DNA of 64,000 nt from Promethearchaeota archaeon (GTDB lineage Archaea > Asgardarchaeota > Lokiarchaeia > Sigyniarchaeales > SOKP01), in NCBI GenBank assembly GCA_019057795.1, contig JAHLWS010000011.1:1-64000 (forward strand), written 5' to 3'. A model generated the notes under the pieces. The model made no database searches, was not told the origin of the DNA, and saw only the letters and a program-made list of their open reading frames with translations. Positions 29,206 through 39,371 of the stretch are shown one piece after another. Positions within the stretch are counted from its first letter, which is position 1. Every line of letters starts with the position of its first letter. Position numbers and translations under genes: made by a program.

Positions 29206-32200
29206 TTACTTTTTACCTCCTTCACTAATTTTTTTGTCTATTAAAATCATCTCTAATTGTTTCTTCCTATATCGTCGGTAATATATGTAAACCCCAACTA
29301 AAGCACCAAGAAACACGAAAGTTAATATTGAATGAATTAGATTAGATGGCACTAATACTTTGATGGTACTAACAGTTAAAATTAAGCCACTCTTATCACG
29401 CATAATAACGCTAATATCTTTCCAACCCGAACTAAGAGAAACTTGTACGCTTTTAGCAGTTGTAATACCTTGACTAACACCGTTTATTAATACTTCAAAG
29501 TAATCATATAGTGAATCGGTCTCCCACTCAATATTGAAATTATTAGAAATCATCGATTCTCTATTTTTAGGATTTAAAATCTGAATGTTAAATTTAGAAT
29601 TTATGCAATATAATAATTCTCCACTAGCGATTAATAGTTCCTTGCTTCCATCTTCGTTTAAATCAACAATTGGAAATATTGAATTAATATCCATATTAAA
29701 TCTATAAAGAATTGTCTGATTGAATATATCCCGAATTTCTGATATCGGAAATGCTTCATAGTACTCATAAAATTGCTCTGTTATTTTTCTGTAACCATTA
29801 TGCTCGATAAAAATCTCGTCATATCCGTCTCCATTAATATCTTCAATTTTTTCTATGTTTAAGACAAATTCATAGGAGTAAGTGGCATAAGGGTTCAAGC
29901 AACTAGCAGATTCTAGTACCCATTTATAATTAGTTAATTCGATTGGTTCATTTTCATTACTATTTAAAATATCATAGAAATTGATATAAGAATGTTTACA
30001 GCCGGAACTATCAGATTGTATTCCTATTATTGCTTCAGAGGTTCCATCATTAGTAATATCTCCGATTGAAGTAAAGGGCATTTTAAGTTTATCTGATTCA
30101 TCAATATCGTCGTTTATATTAGTATCATCGAAAATTTCTTTAAATAAAATAACAGGATTAGAATCACCAGAATTACCGCTAAATATTTTACATTCCATTT
30201 CATAAGTATAATAATATTCTTCTATTGTTTCTGATCTATATATACCAACATGATCAAGGAAATCATCACCATTGAAATCTTCATGGGAAATTAGTAATAG
30301 ATAACCTGCACCTTCTAAACCAAAGTCAATCTTTCCTATATTACTCTCCGCAGCATAGATAGCTGATTTCAAATTTTCTGTTGGGATTTTACATACTGTT
30401 GAACGGCTATTAATATCAATAATTCGAATATTGGTTAAAGATGAAGAGAAATAACTCCCCATTTCGTATTCTAATTCTACTTCCAAATATTCATATTCTC
30501 CTACAATAATTCCTATTTTTCCATCTTTCGATATTTTTGTTTTTCCAGGAAATTCATAAGGTGTAGAATCATAATATTCTTCTGTTGGAAAGTTTGGAAT
30601 CTCTACCCAGGAATAGTTAATTAATACTTTAGAATCCGAATAATTTTCAAAATGAGATATTTGAGAATCCCAATAAGGATCACTTATTAATTTATGAGAA
30701 CATTTAGATGTATTTCCGAATTGGAAGATTCCAGTTAATAACCAGTTATTTAGACTATTATTTAATGGTAAAACCCGTACATTTTCATGTGGAATAAATG
30801 TTTGATTAAGACTCCATTTAGTATAAGCCTCTTTGCTTTTTAGATCAAAAAGGCGGATTCTTGTACTCCATGTATTAGGCGTATATATATCGTCGCTTTC
30901 AATACCAATTATAGCAATTAAATCCAAATATTGATCATTAGTTCCGTTAACAACCTCAAAGTCTTGAATTTCTAAATTTAGTAGATTACTTTTGTCCCAA
31001 GCATCACTAGCATATTTCCATGTATAATATCTATCGTATTCATTGTTAAATAAACCCCAATAAAATGCTGCAAGACCAAAATCATTAATTGTCACATTAA
31101 ATGGGTTCTTACCATTTGTGATATTCAAACGAATTTGAATATTTTTATTTGCATCCACGAAATTCGATAATGTAGTTTTATTCTCATAATCAAATTCAAT
31201 AAAATCATCAGCGTCGTCTGTTCCACGTGTAATTACCCACATATGATCATCCTGAAAATCAGAATTATCTAAATCAAAATAATCAAAAGATGTTCTTCTT
31301 GGCGATTTAAAATCACCTTTAAGATCACGATATGTGTGATTATTCCAAGTTGGTGTTGAACTCCAGTTGCATAAAACCCATTTGTTATTATATACATCAA
31401 AAATTTCATAAGTAAAATTGTACCAACTAGGAGAAGAAGTATTTACCATTAGACTAGTTTGCATTTTAAGAGCAGATAATCGTTCAATTTGGGAAAGTGG
31501 ATACTCCATAGATCCCAATAAATCATCATCAAGTAAATTTACTGGAATTGTTAAGTCCATTATCGCTCTCCATGAAGAAGTTTCTACCTCTTCAGCTTTA
31601 ATAGTATAATTTCCTTCATCATCCAATAAATCAGCTAAGCTATCGGAAAAAGTACCGTTTATAGGTACAATACTACTTGCTTGCGCTAATGACGAATAAT
31701 TCCATGGGTTTCCCCCCACCCCACCCCACTGAATATCAAAATTATTAACCCAAGTATCATCTATTTCACCATTAATTCTATTATATATATGATTTTCAGA
31801 GGAAGATATCTCGACTGGTTCTATATAAGTCCCACTGTATTCATATTCGCGATAAAATTTATATGGAAAATCTATCATAGGAGTACTCCAAATAATATTT
31901 CCATCAGAACCATCAATAACTAAAACTTTAGTATATTTAGTTAAGAGAGACCTATATATCATTTCTTTATATGAATCAATTGTTCCAATCCCTATTAGAC
32001 TTTTTATATGTTCCGAAACATCGGAAGGTATTTCTGAGGGAATAATCCATGCCCCATAATCATCAATATCATCATCACCAGTAATATCCCCCACATTTTT
32101 TAAGTCCCTTAGTCCCTTATAATATTCTGGTGAAGGGATATTTAACGACCATATTATATTTCCCGTTCTTGCATCAATTGTATATAATTCAACTATGATG

Positions 32201-33984
32201 GTTGGTTTTTCTGTAGTTTGAGACGGGATTCCATTATCATCTGAACTAATCCAATCTGGTTCAAAATCACTTTTTTGCATTATTAGGAAATCGTTAAATC
32301 CATCATCATTTAAATCATTGGTCTCAGTTATCTCTATTTCAGATGCCTCTTGAGTTCTCACCCAAAGGGTATCATTATTTTTACAATCAATACATAAATA
32401 GCGACCATTTGCAGTAATAGCAAATAAATCATCCACACCATCACTATTAAGATCACCCACATTCAAGAAATAATGTCCTTTCTTACTTCCACTATAAGAC
32501 GATACACTCTCATATTGACCAGGATCTTCATAAACAACCACTGGATCAACTGACTTTTCATCATCAATGTGATATCGATTAATTAATGCTGTGAGATATT
32601 CACCATAATAATCTTCATATGAATAATAATAAATATAAATATCAGAATCTACTTTAATTATTTCTGGATAAGAACTGAGAAAAAAGCTACTATAAGTCCA
32701 GTTTAGACTACGGGTGATGTTTATCTTATTTATTTCGGATAAGGGATTTATATTAAATATTTTACCTTGAATTATTTTTGCTTGTGAATCATAACCTGAA
32801 GAATAATCGAGATCAGATGCGATTGAAATGTACTCTTTAATCCCATCATTATTAATATCAGGAATTTCGTAAATTTTTATTCCAGATTTCATAAATATTC
32901 TTTTTACTGATGAATATGGAGATGTTGGGTAAGTACCATAATATGAATCTGTAGTACTACTTAAATTAAAACAAACATCATCATCAAGAAGACGACCATT
33001 CTTTCCAGAAATTAATCGTAAATATCCATCGTCAGAAGCTATTAAAATATCATTAATCTCATCATTATTAATATCTCCAACATCCTTTATATCATCGATA
33101 GAATTGGGTATAGTTACAGGAGTAAGACCCGTCATGCCATAAACTAGCTTTACTGTTCCTTCTACTGTAAAAGTCCAATGTTTGCTTCCATCTTGAGAAT
33201 CAAATGCAATTAATTTACCTTCTTCTGAACCGGCAATAATAGTTTCAGCTCCGTTACCATTTATATCTTCTACTACTTCTAATTTCCAAACATCATTGGT
33301 AAAGTCATGATCATTCATCCATACTTTATTTCCAGACTTTCCATTTACAACGATTAATCTATGCCACGAAGAAATTACGATTTCTGATATATCATCATCA
33401 TTTATATCATTAATTAATTTGATATCCCATGAATATGGAATAAAATTTTGTGCTTGATACGTCTCAGTACTAATACCTTCGATTGTGGGCTTAAACTTCC
33501 ATATTTCTGACCCATTATTAGAAGAAATTGCGATTAAATTTGGATGTTCTTGAAAATAAGTAATAAGTACAATATCATCCTGATTATCACCTGAAATATC
33601 TTCAATAATTTCAAAATCAATTACGGGTCCAAAAGTTCTATAACTCATAATTATAAAACCATCTAATGTAATTGTAGCAATACCTCCATCAGTTCCAACG
33701 ATAATTAATGGGGGTCCTCCTTCTGTAAAATTGACTAATCTAGGTTGCATTGCTGCTCCAGAACCAGGAAGCCCTTTACCAAGTTTCCATATAATTGAAT
33801 CTTCTCCAGAATCCTCAGCTTGAGTCTTAGGTTTGTTTGAGAAATCATTAATAAATAGGTTACTGGGGATGAAATTGATTATAGGCAAACTTAAGATAAT
33901 AATTAAAGCTGTAATTGAATATATTTTATATCGAAGTTTTAAGTCAGTTCTTCTTTTCATTTTTATTTTCACACTAGATTTCAT
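29206..33984 (-). CDS. Large cell-surface protein with FG-GAP/PQQ-type beta-propeller repeats
   Basis: N-terminal signal/TM helix; about 12 D-[ILF]-[NTS]-x-D-G/D-x-x-[DE] loops; repeated G..IW blades; C-terminal TM helix followed by YRRYRKK. Confidence 0.8.
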   Translation of the reverse strand: MKSSVKIKMKRRTDLKLRYKIYSITALIIILSLPIINFIPSNLFINDFSNKPKTQAEDSGEDSIIWKLGKGLPGSGAAMQPRLVNFTEGGPPLIIVGTDGGIATITLDGFIIMSYRTFGPVIDFEIIEDISGDNQDDIVLITYFQEHPNLIAISSNNGSEIWKFKPTIEGISTETYQAQNFIPYSWDIKLINDINDDDISEIVISSWHRLIVVNGKSGNKVWMNDHDFTNDVWKLEVVEDINGNGAETIIAGSEEGKLIAFDSQDGSKHWTFTVEGTVKLVYGMTGLTPVTIPNSIDDIKDVGDINNDEINDILIASDDGYLRLISGKNGRLLDDDVCFNLSSTTDSYYGTYPTSPYSSVKRIFMKSGIKIYEIPDINNDGIKEYISIASDLDYSSGYDSQAKIIQGKIFNINPLSEINKINITRSLNWTYSSFFLSSYPEIIKVDSDIYIYYYSYEDYYGEYLTALINRYHIDDEKSVDPVVVYEDPGQYESVSSYSGSKKGHYFLNVGDLNSDGVDDLFAITANGRYLCIDCKNNDTLWVRTQEASEIEITETNDLNDDGFNDFLIMQKSDFEPDWISSDDNGIPSQTTEKPTIIVELYTIDARTGNIIWSLNIPSPEYYKGLRDLKNVGDITGDDDIDDYGAWIIPSEIPSDVSEHIKSLIGIGTIDSYKEMIYRSLLTKYTKVLVIDGSDGNIIWSTPMIDFPYKFYREYEYSGTYIEPVEISSSENHIYNRINGEIDDTWVNNFDIQWGGVGGNPWNYSSLAQASSIVPINGTFSDSLADLLDDEGNYTIKAEEVETSSWRAIMDLTIPVNLLDDDLLGSMEYPLSQIERLSALKMQTSLMVNTSSPSWYNFTYEIFDVYNNKWVLCNWSSTPTWNNHTYRDLKGDFKSPRRTSFDYFDLDNSDFQDDHMWVITRGTDDADDFIEFDYENKTTLSNFVDANKNIQIRLNITNGKNPFNVTINDFGLAAFYWGLFNNEYDRYYTWKYASDAWDKSNLLNLEIQDFEVVNGTNDQYLDLIAIIGIESDDIYTPNTWSTRIRLFDLKSKEAYTKWSLNQTFIPHENVRVLPLNNSLNNWLLTGIFQFGNTSKCSHKLISDPYWDSQISHFENYSDSKVLINYSWVEIPNFPTEEYYDSTPYEFPGKTKISKDGKIGIIVGEYEYLEVELEYEMGSYFSSSLTNIRIIDINSRSTVCKIPTENLKSAIYAAESNIGKIDFGLEGAGYLLLISHEDFNGDDFLDHVGIYRSETIEEYYYTYEMECKIFSGNSGDSNPVILFKEIFDDTNINDDIDESDKLKMPFTSIGDITNDGTSEAIIGIQSDSSGCKHSYINFYDILNSNENEPIELTNYKWVLESASCLNPYATYSYEFVLNIEKIEDINGDGYDEIFIEHNGYRKITEQFYEYYEAFPISEIRDIFNQTILYRFNMDINSIFPIVDLNEDGSKELLIASGELLYCINSKFNIQILNPKNRESMISNNFNIEWETDSLYDYFEVLINGVSQGITTAKSVQVSLSSGWKDISVIMRDKSGLILTVSTIKVLVPSNLIHSILTFVFLGALVGVYIYYRRYRKKQLEMILIDKKISEGGKK

Positions 33985-34157: not shown

Positions 34158-34415
34158 TTATTGGCTATTACGAAATGGAACTAATCTAATTGCCTTATTA
34201 GGACATCTATGGTAACATACAGAACAACCCCCACAATAAGATTCAGTTATAATTGTTATAGCTTTTCCCTCGGCGTTAAATTTTCTAATATTGAGTGGAC
34301 AATATATTACGCAAGTTCCACATGATTTACACTTAGATAATTCTGTTATTGCTTTATAAGATAATTTAGATAATTCTCTGATTTTTTTTTGTAATTTAGG
34401 TGAGGCTGTTTTCAT
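34158..34415 (-). CDS. 2[4Fe-4S] ferredoxin
   Basis: CKSCGTCVIYCP and CGGCSVCYHRCP. Confidence 0.88.
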   Translation of the reverse strand: MKTASPKLQKKIRELSKLSYKAITELSKCKSCGTCVIYCPLNIRKFNAEGKAITIITESYCGGCSVCYHRCPNKAIRLVPFRNSQ

Positions 34416-34485
34416 TATTTAAAAAAATAAATTATTGTTCAAAAAGAGTTTGAAAAAAAAAATTGTGGATTTTTTCACGAAGTTT

Positions 34486-35508
34486 TTAAGAGATATTAGC
34501 ACACAATTTCTTTAATATTTTTTCTGCTTCGTTTGAGAAACTGGTAATTATATCCCCAACATCCATTATCGAGTCAATAAGACCACATGTTTGCCCTACT
34601 GGAATAGCTCCATTATCCACATCTCCTTGAGTGTATACGATTTCGTATCGATGAAGATCTTCCATAAATCCATCCAGATCAATCGCTAATTCTTGAGCAA
34701 TTTTTTCTTCTTTTGTCATAAGCGCTCCATGTTCTAAACAGTATTTATTTTTCAATAATCTTATTGGTCCAAACCCACCTGTAGTAAGCAATGTATCTCG
34801 AGCTGTCGCAGGAGGGATTAAAGCTTTATAATTAGGATGGAATTCGCTTTCACTAGATGCTATAAATCGCGTTCCCATAGCAACAGCATCCGCCCCCATA
34901 GCTAATCCCGCAGCTACGCCTTCTGGACTTGCAATACCCCCACAAGCAATTAATGGTTTTTCGGGGTATTTTTGGGCAACCTGTGTAACCAGAACTAATG
35001 TAGTAATCCCTTCATAACTTTGATGACCGCCCCCTTCCGTACCAGTAGCAACAACACCATCGCATCCTGCAGCATATACTTTATCAACTAACCATAAAGC
35101 TGGAGCGACGTGATAATGCATGATATGAGGTGCCTTTTGTTTTAATATTTTACTAGCATTTCGTGCACCTCCAGCACTTGTTAGCAAATAAATTAACTGT
35201 TCGCGAATTTTTGGATTTGTATTACTCAATTGAGCAATTTTTCTTAACATAATCTTATGATCCGTCTGAACGCGAGCAGTTCGAATATTAACGCCGAATG
35301 GTTTATCTGTATGTTCAATTACATAATCTAACTGCTTCATCATATCTTTTATCGAATTTTTTCCTTGTAAAGTTGCGTGACTTACAACTCCAAGTCCTCC
35401 CGCCTCAGAAACAGCGATAGATAATTCGGTCGTGTAGAATGGACCCATCGGAGCGCTAAATATTGGATATTTTATCCCAAATGATTCTGTTATTTTAGTT
35501 TTAATCAT
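34486..35508 (-). CDS. Nitronate monooxygenase / FabK-like FMN oxidoreductase
   Basis: APMG, AVSEAGGLG, KPFGVN, EGGGH, GGIA, MGTRF. Confidence 0.9.
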   Translation of the reverse strand: MIKTKITESFGIKYPIFSAPMGPFYTTELSIAVSEAGGLGVVSHATLQGKNSIKDMMKQLDYVIEHTDKPFGVNIRTARVQTDHKIMLRKIAQLSNTNPKIREQLIYLLTSAGGARNASKILKQKAPHIMHYHVAPALWLVDKVYAAGCDGVVATGTEGGGHQSYEGITTLVLVTQVAQKYPEKPLIACGGIASPEGVAAGLAMGADAVAMGTRFIASSESEFHPNYKALIPPATARDTLLTTGGFGPIRLLKNKYCLEHGALMTKEEKIAQELAIDLDGFMEDLHRYEIVYTQGDVDNGAIPVGQTCGLIDSIMDVGDIITSFSNEAEKILKKLCANIS

Positions 35509-35743
35509 ATTTGATTTATTCCTATTTTTAAAATTATGATAGTTAATAATACTTTTTTGCGATTAAAAAAGATATTCTTCTTAAGTTTCAATAAAAAAAA
35601 AAATCAGTTTATCTTCTTTTTTAACAATAAAAAAGCTATCTAAATTAAATTTATAGAATCAAAAGTTTTGTATTAAAAATAATAAAACTTAATATAAACA
35701 ATAAAAAGATGCTTGAATCTGAACATTAACAGGTTTATTAAAA

Positions 35744-36229
35744 CTATTTTTCTAAGTGTTCGGTTTTAGAAGCAATGATGTTTGTAATACTTCCATTGGG
35801 AGTTAAATTAGAGTATTCCACCCTTATTTCCTCTTTTGTATATTTTTCAATCATAGCTGCCATGACCATAGCCATTGGACACACCCCTTTAGTACCTGCA
35901 ACTTTATGAGCAGATCTTGCCATGAAACAATTATCCAAGGAAAAAACATACGAACCATCAGGTCTTTTCTTAAGAGAAGCGTTGTCAACTAATAGAGAAG
36001 TTTTTAATAACTCTACAAACCTTTTTCCAAAATCTTCAATATTTTCTCCTACTATTGGCTCAATACCCAATTTTTCAGCTATTTCCATAGACTCTTTTAT
36101 TGCGGGAAAAATATAATCATTAAATCCAATTTTTCCTAAAGTCTCATCAATACCGTGTTGAAGAGTAAAAACCCCCACGTGAAATAAACCCGTGATAAAT
36201 CCAAACTCCTTTGGCATCATTTTATCCAT
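35744..36229 (-). CDS. V4R / methanogen-output-domain-like (H-NOX/Bet3 clan) protein
   Basis: Helical N-terminal half, then strand-C(FMA)-x-CPM..MAAMIE pattern typical of V4R-type domains. Confidence 0.55.
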   Translation of the reverse strand: MDKMMPKEFGFITGLFHVGVFTLQHGIDETLGKIGFNDYIFPAIKESMEIAEKLGIEPIVGENIEDFGKRFVELLKTSLLVDNASLKKRPDGSYVFSLDNCFMARSAHKVAGTKGVCPMAMVMAAMIEKYTKEEIRVEYSNLTPNGSITNIIASKTEHLEK

Positions 36230-36275
36230 TAATTTACGCTTTAATCCTATTTTTTTTCACCTTTAAATTTCTTAA

Positions 36276-36593
36276 TTATACATTATTCCATACACTATTA
36301 AATATTTCTTCAGTTTTTTCTATAATCATCTTATGTTCTATTACTTTTGTCATAGGAAATAAGACCATTATATATTTATGTTCCCTTTTTGAGATTGAAA
36401 TCAATTTATTTTCTGAAGAAATAACAATGCTATTTACCTCACCAGCTTCAAATTCATTTGAAAATTTTTTGACTAAATTTATTAACATTCCTCCAATTGC
36501 AATTTGACGTGGCGAAGAATACTTAGGAGGAACTTCGGAAAAAACAACTTTTCCTTGTATTTCATCAAATACAATAATTCCTTCTGCTTGCAC
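36276..36593 (-). CDS. Roadblock/longin-like small domain protein, paralogous to the C-terminal half of 37226-38041
   Basis: QAEGIIVFDE..YSSPRQIAIGGMLIN..GEVNSIVISSE..SKRE aligns with QSEGVILFDE..YSSRKQISMSGMLIN..GDVNCILISSE..SKRD; GGAGG SD motif upstream. Confidence 0.65.
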   Translation of the reverse strand: MQAEGIIVFDEIQGKVVFSEVPPKYSSPRQIAIGGMLINLVKKFSNEFEAGEVNSIVISSENKLISISKREHKYIMVLFPMTKVIEHKMIIEKTEEIFNSVWNNV

Positions 36594-36657
36594 TTTATTT
36601 TTTAGTTCCTCCAGTTAATTTTAAATTAATTTAATAAATATTTATCGAAGTATAATC

Positions 36658-37215
36658 TTATAAATTACTTTTATATTTTTCATATAATACTCTAATTATT
36701 TTTTGGAACGCTTCGGTCACCCCTTGATTTGTTTTCGCAGAAGTTCGAAAAACTCCAATAAAGTTCTTCTCTTTAATGAAGTTTTGAATATATGTGTCAT
36801 CTAACTTATCTTCATTAATTAAATCTACTTTATTTGCAAAAATAATAATAGGAATATCACCACAACTCTGTTTAAGGTCCTTATACCAATCAACAATGTG
36901 ATTGAGACTTTCTTCACCAAGATCATTTTCTTCGAGGGAATAAACAATAATTGCAGCTTTACTTTCTTCATAAAAATCAGAACGTAAAAATTCAAATTCC
37001 TTTTGACCAGCAATATCCCAAAAATATAATTTACATTCATCTCCATTTATTTTCTCATCATAAAAAGAAAATTGGGCGCCTATAGTAGATATATAATCTT
37101 CCTCAAAAGTACCATGAGTATACTTTTTAATTAGAGATGTTTTTCCAACTCCTCCATCTCCAATTACAGTTATTTTAAATACAAATTTTAAATGTGTATC
37201 ATTCATTAGTTTCAA
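36658..37215 (-). CDS. Rab-like small GTPase
   Basis: G1 GDGGVGKT, G2 STIG, G3 WDIAGQ, G4 NKVD, G5 TSAK; no C-terminal Cys prenylation motif. Confidence 0.95.
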   Translation of the reverse strand: MKLMNDTHLKFVFKITVIGDGGVGKTSLIKKYTHGTFEEDYISTIGAQFSFYDEKINGDECKLYFWDIAGQKEFEFLRSDFYEESKAAIIVYSLEENDLGEESLNHIVDWYKDLKQSCGDIPIIIFANKVDLINEDKLDDTYIQNFIKEKNFIGVFRTSAKTNQGVTEAFQKIIRVLYEKYKSNL

Positions 37216-37225
37216 TCAAATCCAT

Positions 37226-38041
37226 TTATTTTAATAATTCAATCTTTAACATTTTCAAAACGTCATCTAAAATTTCTTCAGTTTTTTCCACAATTATATT
37301 AAGTTCAATATTTTTTGTTTTGGAAAATAAAACAATTATGTAAATATAATCTCTTTTCGAGACACAAATCCACCGATACTCTGAAGAGATTAATATACAA
37401 TTTACATCTCCTCCTTGATATTCATATGATAATTTTTTAGCAAAATTTATTAACATTCCACTCATCGAAATTTGTTTTCTAGATGAATATTCTTCTGGAA
37501 CTTTAGCAAAAAGAATTTTTTCTTGGTTTTCGTCAAATAGAATTACTCCTTCGGATTGCACCTTATAGCCAAACTCTTCTAATAAACCTTCAATAAGCGG
37601 TTGTTCCATGAACTGTAATATGTAATTGTTAAAATCTGAGAAGACGGTTATATTTCCATTACGAATAGGGATGTGATCTTGATATACTTCTAAAAATTTA
37701 TTTGATATTTTGTTTAGAATGTAAACAATTACTTGATTTGGTAGATCGTCATAGCATTGTATACAAAAAGTTATATTCTCGAAGTTATTATAAAATAATT
37801 TATGACCACTCATTATTAAGGATTTAACTACCGTACCTGGAATTAATTTCTCACCAAACTTCTTAATAGCTGTGAAAAATCCAGACACTATATTTTCATC
37901 CAAATTTTCAGGTTTTATGCCACAACTTGTCAAACAAACCCCTGCGTTATCATAAATATAAATTGATTCAACATAATTTTCTATTGCTTTTTTTTCTTCT
38001 AACAACTCACCCTTATCCGCACTCATACTTCTATCACCCAT
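37226..38041 (-). CDS. Two-domain longin + roadblock/longin-like protein
   Basis: IYIYDNAGVCL..IVSGFFTAIKKFG..LNKISNKFLEVY..F..F longin pattern, then a second domain duplicated in 36276-36593. Confidence 0.7.
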   Translation of the reverse strand: MGDRSMSADKGELLEEKKAIENYVESIYIYDNAGVCLTSCGIKPENLDENIVSGFFTAIKKFGEKLIPGTVVKSLIMSGHKLFYNNFENITFCIQCYDDLPNQVIVYILNKISNKFLEVYQDHIPIRNGNITVFSDFNNYILQFMEQPLIEGLLEEFGYKVQSEGVILFDENQEKILFAKVPEEYSSRKQISMSGMLINFAKKLSYEYQGGDVNCILISSEYRWICVSKRDYIYIIVLFSKTKNIELNIIVEKTEEILDDVLKMLKIELLK

Positions 38042-38054
38042 TTCTCTTTAAATT

Positions 38055-38306
38055 TTAAGAGTTATCTATTTTATTTTTTTTAAAACCATCAATATGAGAT
38101 TTTAATTTAGAATTTTCAGCTTGGCATTGGTTTAATTGTTCTTGTAATTTTTGGTTTTCTATAACAGTTTTATTCGCGTTTAGCAAGGTTTGATATAATT
38201 GATTCTTAGCCTTCTTTAAATCCTTTTCCAAAGTCTTTACATACTGATCCTTATCAGATACATATGGCCATTCCTCTGTCATTGAATTTCCCTTCTGAAT
38301 TTTCAT
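38055..38306 (-). CDS. Small coiled-coil protein
   Basis: Heptad-rich LEKDLKKAKNQL...LQEQLNQCQAENSKLK; 13 bp from the next gene. Confidence 0.65.
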   Translation of the reverse strand: MKIQKGNSMTEEWPYVSDKDQYVKTLEKDLKKAKNQLYQTLLNANKTVIENQKLQEQLNQCQAENSKLKSHIDGFKKNKIDNS

Positions 38307-38367
38307 ATTCTTTTTTTACTTTTCTGTGATCTTACTATTAATACATAATTATTTCAATATATAATAT

Positions 38368-39054
38368 TTATTTTTGAGATGCTTTTTCTGCTTTAGGTGG
38401 TCGAGTGAAATAACCAATAGTACCACAATTCTTACACTTTTGAGAATTGTCATCTTGAAAGACCATAGTTTTATTGAAACAAGTAGGGCAAATGAAGAGT
38501 ACTTCTTCTATCTTTTCCTCAGGAAATTCTACAATCATATCTATATTAGGAACTATTGGTGTTGTAATACAATACATACAAAAACACCTTTTTTTAGTAG
38601 CTTCAAGAACCTCATCTAATTTTTCTATAGGTGCGTCACTCTCAACAAATATTTCAAGTTTATAGTTCTCTACAGCAGCAATTCCATCCTCAATCCCAAA
38701 TCCAGTAGTTAAATCAATATCTGCAACTATTCTGATATCAAGTTTTTTCAATTCAATTCCCGCCATTGCAGACCATTTAGCAAAAGCTGCAGAAAAGCAT
38801 CCACAAAAACCAGCCATACAATAATGAACAGGATGTACTGCAGTTCCTCCTCCTCCAAGGATTATTGTTTCATCCGTTTGTACAGTAATTTCCCCAGCTC
38901 TTTCTGTTTTCAGTTTGGTTTCGAATTGTGGTCCATATCCTACGTCTAATCTCCATCTACCTTTTACTTCTAAGGTTTTTTTACATTTGGACCGGTCTTT
39001 TCTATATTCTTCTTGTACCTTTTTGAAACCGTCTAGATCAATTCTATTAAGCAT
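38368..39054 (-). CDS. OsmC/Ohr-family protein with C-terminal zinc ribbon
   Basis: DE..LGG.GTA.HP..Y.MAG..GC, second Cys in KRC; C-terminal CPTC...CKNC. Confidence 0.8.
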   Translation of the reverse strand: MLNRIDLDGFKKVQEEYRKDRSKCKKTLEVKGRWRLDVGYGPQFETKLKTERAGEITVQTDETIILGGGGTAVHPVHYCMAGFCGCFSAAFAKWSAMAGIELKKLDIRIVADIDLTTGFGIEDGIAAVENYKLEIFVESDAPIEKLDEVLEATKKRCFCMYCITTPIVPNIDMIVEFPEEKIEEVLFICPTCFNKTMVFQDDNSQKCKNCGTIGYFTRPPKAEKASQK

Positions 39055-39371
39055 TAAGGATCTCCAATAAACTTATTACTAAGTTTAATATTAAATTGGT
39101 TAAACTCTAATATAAAGATATTTACCTTTTCGTCATTTTATACAAGAATGTCCAATTAAATAGACTAAATTTTATATTTTTAATATAAATCTATTAACCT
39201 TTTTGTCATTTTCGAACAATCTAATTTACAAAAATGCAAATAATAATAATAAATATAGAAATCTCTTCAATTTTTTATCAGTTATTTGAGGAATTAAAAT
39301 TTAATTAGGAATCTACCAATTAATTAATCACAATAAAAAATTTTAAATAAAATTATATCAAAATGATAAGA

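Follow-up and report, generated by a model that had tools for sequence, protein, structure and literature searches.

A merged operon of two gene modules places a Rab-like GTPase beside longin, roadblock, Bet3/V4R-fold and OsmC proteins in Lokiarchaeia

The 64,000-nucleotide stretch of a Promethearchaeota archaeon (class Lokiarchaeia) analysed here, hereafter the window, carries at positions 35744-39054 a six-gene operon that is a merger of two gene modules. Module M1 encodes an OsmC protein, a coiled-coil protein and a Rab-like GTPase. Module M2 encodes a protein made of a longin and a roadblock domain and a second protein of Bet3/V4R fold. The sixth gene is a stand-alone paralogue of the roadblock domain. 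On balance, we are inclined to think that the products form a GTPase switch whose longin/roadblock platform is regulatory and which has two further partners, a V4R protein of sensor or anchor type and a thiol-redox protein. A preliminary description of the window had taken the six genes for one self-contained switch with TRAPP-like parts. Its gene calls and tentative fold calls stand, and the cluster is conserved; the single unit does not stand, nor does any likeness to TRAPP beyond the fold.

Conservation and modular architecture

Conservation of the cluster had been set beforehand as one of the points on which the proposal should be judged. The same six-gene order was found in seven Lokiarchaeial genomes of two genera, namely the window genome and G233, G177, G239, G247, G236 and G254. 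Close homologues come from genomes named Lokiarchaeota or Promethearchaeota, and distant ones from Helarchaeota, Thorarchaeota and Odinarchaeia. The genes and their order are real, but they do not make an indivisible unit, since the two modules occur separately. The M2 genes are adjacent in 19 of 20 re-fetched Asgard loci, the one exception stopping at a contig end. At 17 of the re-fetched M2 loci no OsmC or GTPase orthologue lies within ~8 kb and the flanks hold unrelated metabolic genes; M2 is also without a nearby OsmC or GTPase gene in one Odinarchaeia contig and one Helarchaeota contig. M1 occurs by itself in cultured Promethearchaeum syntrophicum MK-D1, with the coiled-coil gene between the genes for OsmC (QEE17234.1) and the GTPase (QEE17236.1, a 'Rab family GTPase' and the orthologue of the window's). 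Open reading frames (ORFs) of 238 and 161 amino acids (aa) that follow the coiled-coil gene in genome G241 were considered as M2 and rejected, as they have no similarity to the two M2 families.

The modules are joined in four arrangements. The first is the window's order, with the GTPase gene between the longin-roadblock and V4R-fold genes. In the second, on a Helarchaeota contig, the order is GTPase, OsmC, coiled coil, longin-roadblock and V4R-fold, the GTPase and OsmC proteins being 74% and 65% identical to those of the window. The third, on metagenome contig L059, runs OsmC, coiled coil, longin-roadblock, V4R-fold and GTPase. In the fourth (G185, G212 and G225), OsmC, coiled-coil and GTPase genes stand next to a divergent pair of M2 paralogues: a 370-aa longin protein, matched to the 271-aa longin-roadblock family by hhalign at 97.6%, and a 357-aa protein with several transmembrane (TM) helices that carries a domain of the 161-aa V4R-fold type. 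The coiled-coil gene directly follows the OsmC gene at every locus seen, and the GTPase gene comes directly after the coiled-coil gene in MK-D1, G142, G185, G212 and G225.

In a maximum-likelihood tree, the 13 GTPases whose genes adjoin OsmC and coiled-coil genes form one clade, whatever the gene position (support 98/99). The seven closest paralogues from the window's own genome fall outside this clade (99/98 in another tree). One clade despite varied gene positions indicates a single orthologue group that has kept the company of OsmC and coiled-coil genes through reshuffling. Nothing else in this analysis speaks as strongly for a functional link as this clade.

The stand-alone roadblock gene is present only in the six-gene arrangement, in which the GTPase gene lies between the longin-roadblock and V4R-fold genes. 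Its 105-aa product and residues 161-261 of the 271-aa protein share 54% identity (E 3e-37), and in a tree such stand-alone proteins nest inside the roadblock domains of the 271-aa family, among those of its Loki, Hel, Thor and Odin subtype (support 96/90), in agreement with its initial description as a paralogue. This nesting, together with the restriction to the six-gene order, argues that the GTPase gene moved in along with a new duplicate of the platform's roadblock domain.

The Rab-like GTPase

All five GTPase motifs announced for the 185-aa protein are intact: G1 GDGGVGKT (19-26), G2 T44, G3 DIAGQ (67-71), G4 NKVD (128-131) and G5 SAK (159-161). It matches Pfam Ras at 5e-40 and Gtr1_RagA at 4.6e-7, and its closest solved structures are Rab35, Rab23 and Rab32 (E 1e-27 to 1e-25). 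Translation more likely starts at Met4 (37206) than at the TTG. No C-terminal Cys of the prenylation type is present in the protein, which ends in YEKYKSNL and has its last Cys at C118; the GTPases of MK-D1 are likewise without a C-terminal Cys motif (Tran et al. 2024, PMC10933270). Two other GTPase types were considered and rejected. Rab and Ran proteins make up all of the 60 best solved relatives, although the PDB contains MglA structures, and the G3 motif is the canonical DIAGQ, which argues against an MglA-type protein. A Rag GTPase would have its own C-terminal roadblock domain, whereas the 185-aa protein is a G domain only.

In the source genome (4.95 Mb in 87 contigs), small GTPases give 61 matches, Pfam detects 18 roadblock genes, and longin domains of the type found in the 271-aa protein occur in ~30 ORFs. 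Three further loci of this genome combine such domains: a 681-aa longin-domain protein flanked by two close GTPase paralogues (C21:78801-84652), an ORF with a longin match plus a GTPase match (C87:100068-100952) and a 536-aa frame that is a roadblock-GTPase fusion (C21:24609-25577).

The OsmC and coiled-coil proteins

The first gene had been described as OsmC plus zinc ribbon, and both parts were recovered. The 228-aa protein matches Pfam OsmC at 3e-13 (50.4 bits, cut-off 27.5) and the NCBIfam OsmC-related (seleno)protein family at 1e-19, the latter below cut-off. At its C-terminus is a CxxC...CxxC motif whose four Cys are all invariant in 12 orthologues. The invariant Cys in this alignment are C24, C79, C157, C159, C162, C189, C192, C207 and C210; C86 is nearly so and aligns with the helix Cys of the OsmC-like structure 2opl. 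Both marks of OsmC/Ohr thiol peroxidases were found, that is, a profile match and a conserved Cys on the central helix. Judged by its sequence, the protein is a Cys-rich OsmC-fold member of this peroxidase family with a predicted C-terminal zinc ribbon. In other Lokiarchaeial genomes, frames of ~455 aa (for example G256:C174:669-1826 and G257:C38:13146-14297) hold two tandem Cys-rich OsmC domains, 58-67% identical to the window's OsmC and without a zinc ribbon; they belong to a separate common family.

The second gene was rightly called a coiled coil. In the alignment of 12 orthologues, an invariant E-x-W-P motif at the N-terminus of its product precedes a single long helix, and the Pfam matches of the protein to coiled-coil families are all sub-threshold. 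The orthologues begin at Met9 (38282), which is likely the true start and would give a protein of ~75 aa.

The longin-roadblock protein

The AlphaFold2 (AF2) model of the 271-aa protein (pLDDT 82) has two domains. The first has the beta-beta-alpha-beta-beta-beta-alpha topology and superposes on longin domains (VIA Z 14.8 for VAMP7, 14.7 for TRAPPC4, 14.4 for Fuzzy LD1, 14.3 for Sec22b and 13.1 for Mon1). The second is a roadblock domain: VIA Z is 16.9 for MK-D1 Roadblock3 (9jue; rmsd, the root-mean-square deviation, 1.9 A over 118 aa), 16.2 for MglB and ~15 for LAMTOR2, and the family profile matches 9jue with E 2.4e-4. Among 31 family members, Pfam Robl_LC7 is matched by 25 (best 7e-7), Longin by 20 (best 2e-5) and Fuz_longin_1 by 10 (best 1.8e-4), with weak Intu_longin_1 matches too; the window's own protein matches Longin at 9e-4, below cut-off. 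Both the fold, which in the roadblock/LC7 group is alpha-beta-beta-alpha-beta-beta-beta(-alpha), and the family profile thus assign the protein and its family to the roadblock/LC7 and longin groups.

At full length, the model finds its best Foldseek matches in BLOC-3, Fuzzy-Inturned and Mon1-Ccz1 (E 2e-7 to 6e-6). Their rmsd of 14-18 A means that only the separate domains superpose. Compared with first longin domains of the Fuz/Mon1/HPS1 type, the window's domain scores no better with Fuzzy LD1 and Mon1 than with SNARE longin domains. The architecture of Rab guanine nucleotide exchange factors (GEFs) with three longin domains was rejected for this protein, which has only the two domains. Also rejected was a longin GTPase-activating protein (GAP) of the FLCN, NPRL2 or SMCR8 type. 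The signature of longin GAPs is a GP motif between strands 1 and 2 plus an arginine finger (PMC12290439); the family has a near-invariant G34, but the window's subfamily lacks a conserved Pro next to it, and no Arg is invariant. The missing signature argues against the longin-GAP type only.

The Bet3/V4R-fold protein

No Pfam or NCBIfam family was matched by the 161-aa protein. Its AF2 model (pLDDT 85.8, pTM 0.84) superposes on Thor-TRAPPC3 with Z 7.8-8.1 over ~140 aa, the best being 7yh3 (VIA Z 8.1, 139 aa, rmsd 3.6), and on Trs31, TPC6, Bet3, BcsD and the V4R protein MJ1460 with VIA Z 6-7.7. In a search independent of Foldseek over 48,161 chains, the top 17 are all of the Bet3/V4R/H-NOX clan at full length (Z 4.9-7.6; members are YslB, Thor-TRAPPC3, Trs31, BcsD, MJ1460 V4R, H-NOX, Bet3, PoxR and DmpR), and unrelated partial matches follow. 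The TM score with the Atlas V4R cluster is 0.62. As modelled, the protein is a member of the Bet3/V4R/H-NOX fold clan, which is marked by a two-layer alpha/beta fold, with middling Z values. The initial V4R (Bet3-clan)-like assignment is borne out by the fold but not by sequence families, and the same is true of the 'TRAPP-like parts', which hold at fold level only because the family has no Pfam V4R or TRAPP_Bet3 match (0 of 108 relatives). The haem-binding motif of H-NOX, which we take to be YxSxR, was not seen on inspection of the 161-aa sequence.

Residues H17, C101, H108 and C117 are invariant in 30 relatives, and C101, H108 and C117 also persist in 90% or more of 108 distant relatives. 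They may form a His/Cys metal- or ligand-binding site. The domain is uncommon, with only 145 clusters among the 1.84 billion representatives searched. Among 108 relatives it is fused to CBS domains in nine, to receiver domains in three and to helix-turn-helix (HTH) domains in several, which suggests a sensor rather than a structural TRAPP subunit. The sequences point to an uncharacterised small-molecule or metal sensor domain. Fusions with longin or roadblock domains were not found among the 145 cluster representatives, the sole match being an odd 129-aa fragment (P0227). A complex prediction for the 271-aa and 161-aa proteins with alignments (score 0.02, mark 0.32) is evidence neither way.

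Three Asgard subtypes of the family were observed: a soluble one, as in the window, one with a single N-terminal TM helix, and one at the end of a multi-TM protein of ~350 aa. By profile searches of the window genome and ten further Lokiarchaeial genomes, each has at most one member, either soluble in the operon or TM, or none (G241). A 240-aa ORF before the 352-aa TM form at locus L030 was considered as an M2 partner and rejected for lack of similarity to the longin-roadblock and V4R-fold families. At L054:2686-3875, two unannotated 157-aa genes lie just upstream of P0239, a distant stand-alone member of the family, and are perhaps further paralogues. In the window, an in-frame peptide IGLKRKL (36230-36253, minus strand) lies upstream of the ATG, directly after a stop. 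It resembles homologue N-termini (MGLKRKL and similar), and the stretch has no ATG, GTG or TTG. Translation may start at a non-canonical codon, up to ~36250.

Locus layout

The six co-oriented genes of the preliminary description were found as minus-strand ORFs exactly where it had placed them (Table 1). Its intergenic gaps of 10-64 bp measure 61, 13, 10, 64 and 46 bp in gene order. No run of five or more T occurs in the five gaps (194 nt together); the 235 nt 3' of the last gene contain five, including T11. The proximal TATA-like box of the TTTATATTA element lies 62 nt before the OsmC ATG, with the second copy 73 nt further upstream. In G233 the proximal promoter-like copy is kept and the distal one is reduced to its start; MK-D1, G142, G185 and G239 have another conserved A/T box (AAAACCTCTTA...) upstream of the OsmC gene instead. 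The tight gaps, the T-runs confined to the 3' end and the upstream A/T element fit one transcription unit, a suggestive picture only, because the G+C content of this DNA is 27%.

Table 1. Features of the operon and its borders, by position in the window
Feature	Position	Strand	Product	Remarks
OsmC/zinc-ribbon gene	38368-39054	minus	228 aa	first gene of the operon and of module M1
Coiled-coil gene	38055-38306	minus	83 aa as called	
Longin-roadblock gene	37226-38041	minus	271 aa	
Longin domain	37604-37990	minus	aa 18-146 of 271-aa protein	AF2 fold, VIA, Pfam
Roadblock domain	37232-37603	minus	aa 147-270 of 271-aa protein	VIA, profile, Pfam
GTPase gene	36658-37215	minus	185 aa from TTG	
Stand-alone roadblock gene	36276-36593	minus	105 aa	
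Bet3/V4R-fold gene	35744-36229	minus	161 aa	
T-rich stretch after last gene	35565-35707	minus		candidate archaeal terminator region; five T-runs including T11
Paired direct copies of a ~33-nt promoter-like A/T element	39100-39212	minus		TTTATATTA in each; putative role

On the 3' side of the operon (34158-35508, minus strand) are a gene of the nitronate monooxygenase (NMO) family (Pfam NMO 1.6e-42) and one for an 85-aa 2x[4Fe-4S] ferredoxin. In this position, G233 has ORFs of the same size and strand, G177 an extra 217-aa ORF between, and G239 genes on the opposite strand. Beyond them lies an ORF of 1592 aa (29206-33984, minus strand). Its product has a signal or anchor at the N-terminus, a TM helix at the C-terminus and many D/N-rich, beta-propeller-like repeats, and is probably a large surface protein.

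Interpretation

From gene content, folds, synteny and orthology we infer the following contacts and activities. The 271-aa protein would pair through its roadblock domain with the 105-aa paralogue, or with itself, and such pairing would give a dimeric GTPase-binding platform as in MglB, Ragulator, TRAPP and Mon1-Ccz1. Roadblock and longin domains work as dimers and as platforms for small GTPases; examples are the GAP MglB, Ragulator, the GEFs TRAPP and Mon1-Ccz1, and the FLCN-type GAPs. The platform would set the nucleotide state of the operon's GTPase, as GEF or GAP. The V4R-fold protein would be a standing partner of the platform, acting as a metal- or ligand-binding sensor or as an anchor; its paralogues elsewhere are membrane-anchored. 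The OsmC and coiled-coil proteins, the most constant neighbours of the GTPase, would be its input or output in thiol/peroxide chemistry.

Several observations weigh against this reading. The six-gene form is patchy, being present in 7 of ~400 genomes of the phylum. M2 lacks a GTPase or OsmC gene within 8 kb in most Asgard lineages and M1 occurs without M2 in MK-D1 and G241, so that neither module needs the other. In the alignment of the longin-roadblock family, neither an invariant Arg nor any other catalytic residue was found. Finally, the 161-aa protein matches its fold clan with middling scores (Z at most 8.1), and sequence similarity of its family to Bet3/V4R was detected neither by phmmer nor by the family profile against the PDB; Pfam V4R (PF02830) and TRAPP_Bet3 (PF04051) were matched by none of 108 relatives at E <=0.01 and by none of 30 at E <=1.

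Some of these points would suit a GTPase that acts upstream, its GTP-bound form recruiting the longin, roadblock and V4R proteins as a Ragulator-like scaffold or effector while its regulators are encoded elsewhere. M1 without M2 in MK-D1 and G241 could mean this, and the other longin proteins and roadblock genes of the genome (~30 and 18, respectively) could act in trans. The lack of a catalytic motif in the longin-roadblock family and the membrane-anchored V4R-fold paralogues, which resemble a docking site, agree as well. To our knowledge, however, all characterised prokaryotic roadblock/longin dimers encoded beside a small GTPase (MglB) serve as GAPs or GEFs, and so do most of the eukaryotic ones. 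An upstream GTPase is possible, yet we think it fairly unlikely.

It is also unlikely, and somewhat more so, that the cluster encodes a strict proto-TRAPP or tri-longin-type GEF, that is, a hetero-oligomer formed by the longin domain with the Bet3-fold protein, homologous to the TRAPP core or to GEFs of the Mon1-Ccz1 type, that activates the GTPase. Such a GEF would account for the full-length Foldseek matches of the 271-aa model (BLOC-3, Fuzzy-Inturned, Mon1-Ccz1), for Fuz_longin_1 in 10 of 31 family members, and for the superpositions of the longin domain on TRAPPC4 (Z 14.7) and of the 161-aa model on Thor-TRAPPC3, Trs31 and Bet3 (Z 6-8). Rab23 and Rab32, among the best solved relatives of the GTPase, are clients of Fuzzy-Inturned and BLOC-3, respectively. 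A longin-TRAPPC3 fusion is also known from Heimdall (PMC10933270). The details fit less well: the 271-aa protein has two domains rather than three, the second being a roadblock, and its full-length matches superpose by separate domains only. VAMP7, Sec22b and COPI longin domains score equal to those of TRAPP and Mon1. The 161-aa protein has no sequence-level TRAPP_Bet3 or V4R match, and its CBS, receiver and HTH fusions are sensor-like. A wider form, in which the cluster is an archaeal forerunner of longin/Bet3-type Rab exchange factors whose longin-roadblock platform and Bet3-fold sensor switch the GTPase on a thiol/peroxide signal handled by OsmC, strikes us as speculative and about as unlikely. 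Were it true, Bet3/V4R-fold sensing would have preceded the structural role of this fold in TRAPP.

The modules could instead be independent, adjacent by chance or hitch-hiking, with the longin/roadblock-V4R pair as a GTPase-independent sensor module. Across the phylum M2 is most often found by itself, and unrelated metabolic genes flank it there. Chance does not sit well with four arrangements of M1 with M2, one of them with a different, divergent M2 paralogue pair beside M1, nor with the insertion of the window's GTPase gene between M2 genes along with a fresh copy of the M2 roadblock, nor with tight gaps free of T-runs; we regard independence as improbable. A conflict or defence system built on the GTPase with longin-like and V4R sensor domains, comparable to proposed bacterial MglA- or ParA-based systems, is very improbable: the patchy distribution, the shuffled gene order and a 2026 preprint that ties V4R and profilin/longin-like domains to NTPase-based immune systems (10.64898/2026.10.19.760177) speak for it, but PADLOC matched none of the six proteins, none of them has a nuclease, TIR, protease or other effector domain, and the GTPase clade is inherited along with the genera.

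Significance

The cluster is a variant on a known theme, Asgard GTPases with roadblock-superfamily regulators, and the merger of two modules is new here. No published description of the six-gene cluster was found, and no paper in the literature searched treats OsmC, Asgard and GTPase together or cites the MK-D1 accession numbers. The link of a small GTPase with OsmC is unexpected, and we know of no eukaryotic counterpart.

Asgard genomes hold dozens of small GTPases, as the 61 matches here illustrate, and dozens of longin and roadblock proteins. Since Asgard GTPases are rarely found in operons (Tran et al. 2024, PMC10933270), matching regulators to GTPases has not been possible. The cluster offers one matched, testable set of partners, in which one GTPase orthologue group has OsmC and coiled-coil proteins as constant neighbours and several lineages add longin-roadblock and Bet3/V4R-fold proteins to them. 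As the core triad is present in cultured MK-D1, binding and nucleotide-exchange assays are feasible now. If the longin/Bet3-fold pair proves to regulate the GTPase, this would bear on the origin of exchange factors of the TRAPP and Mon1-Ccz1 type.

Comparison with known systems

The nearest published precedent comes from Liu et al., who reported a conserved Asgard operon in which a Rab-like GTPase is encoded with a LAMTOR1-like roadblock protein and a DENN-domain protein; they found most such genes outside conserved neighbourhoods and do not mention OsmC, V4R or TRAPP (bioRxiv 10.1101/2020.10.19.343400). Like the window's cluster, their operon is an Asgard locus with a Rab-like, not Rag-like, GTPase beside roadblock-superfamily proteins and a candidate GTPase regulator. 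In contrast, the window's cluster is without DENN, its GTPase partners being the longin-roadblock, roadblock, V4R/Bet3-fold, OsmC/zinc-ribbon and coiled-coil proteins, and it is patchy and absent from most Asgard genomes.

Thor-TRAPPC3 (PDB 7yh2 and 7yh3), the closest solved fold to the 161-aa protein, holds Zn by four Cys close to the sheet and helix D; it also contains a ligand cavity (PMC10933270). A Cys-based metal site is present there and putative in the 161-aa protein. The two differ in that no sequence similarity is detectable by profile against the PDB, and in that the window's site is H/C/H/C instead of four Cys. Longin and TRAPPC3 are linked by fusion in a modelled Heimdall protein and by gene adjacency in the window, while for MK-D1 Tran et al. 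(2024, PMC10933270) state that GTPase genes generally do not share operons with those for roadblock, longin or TRAPPC3 proteins.

Tandem longin-type domains are found in Mon1-Ccz1, Fuzzy-Inturned/CPLANE and HPS1-HPS4/BLOC-3 as in the 271-aa protein; those factors act on Rab-type GTPases, and the 271-aa protein, by analogy, may do so too. Unlike these tri-longin Rab GEFs, it has two domains, not three, and comes with a single-domain roadblock paralogue instead of a second long subunit. With the TRAPP core (Bet5/Trs23/Trs20 plus Bet3/Trs31/Trs33) the cluster has in common that longin and Bet3 folds are encoded beside a Rab-like GTPase. This likeness is at fold level only and known here from genes; the window's roadblock domain is missing in TRAPP, and the relatives of the window's Bet3-fold protein resemble sensor domains. 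MglA-MglB of Myxococcus and Thermus is the prokaryotic case of a roadblock gene beside that of a Ras-superfamily GTPase, and the superposition on MglB reaches Z 16.2. The window GTPase is nearer to Rab and Ran, and its cluster adds longin, V4R-fold and OsmC partners.

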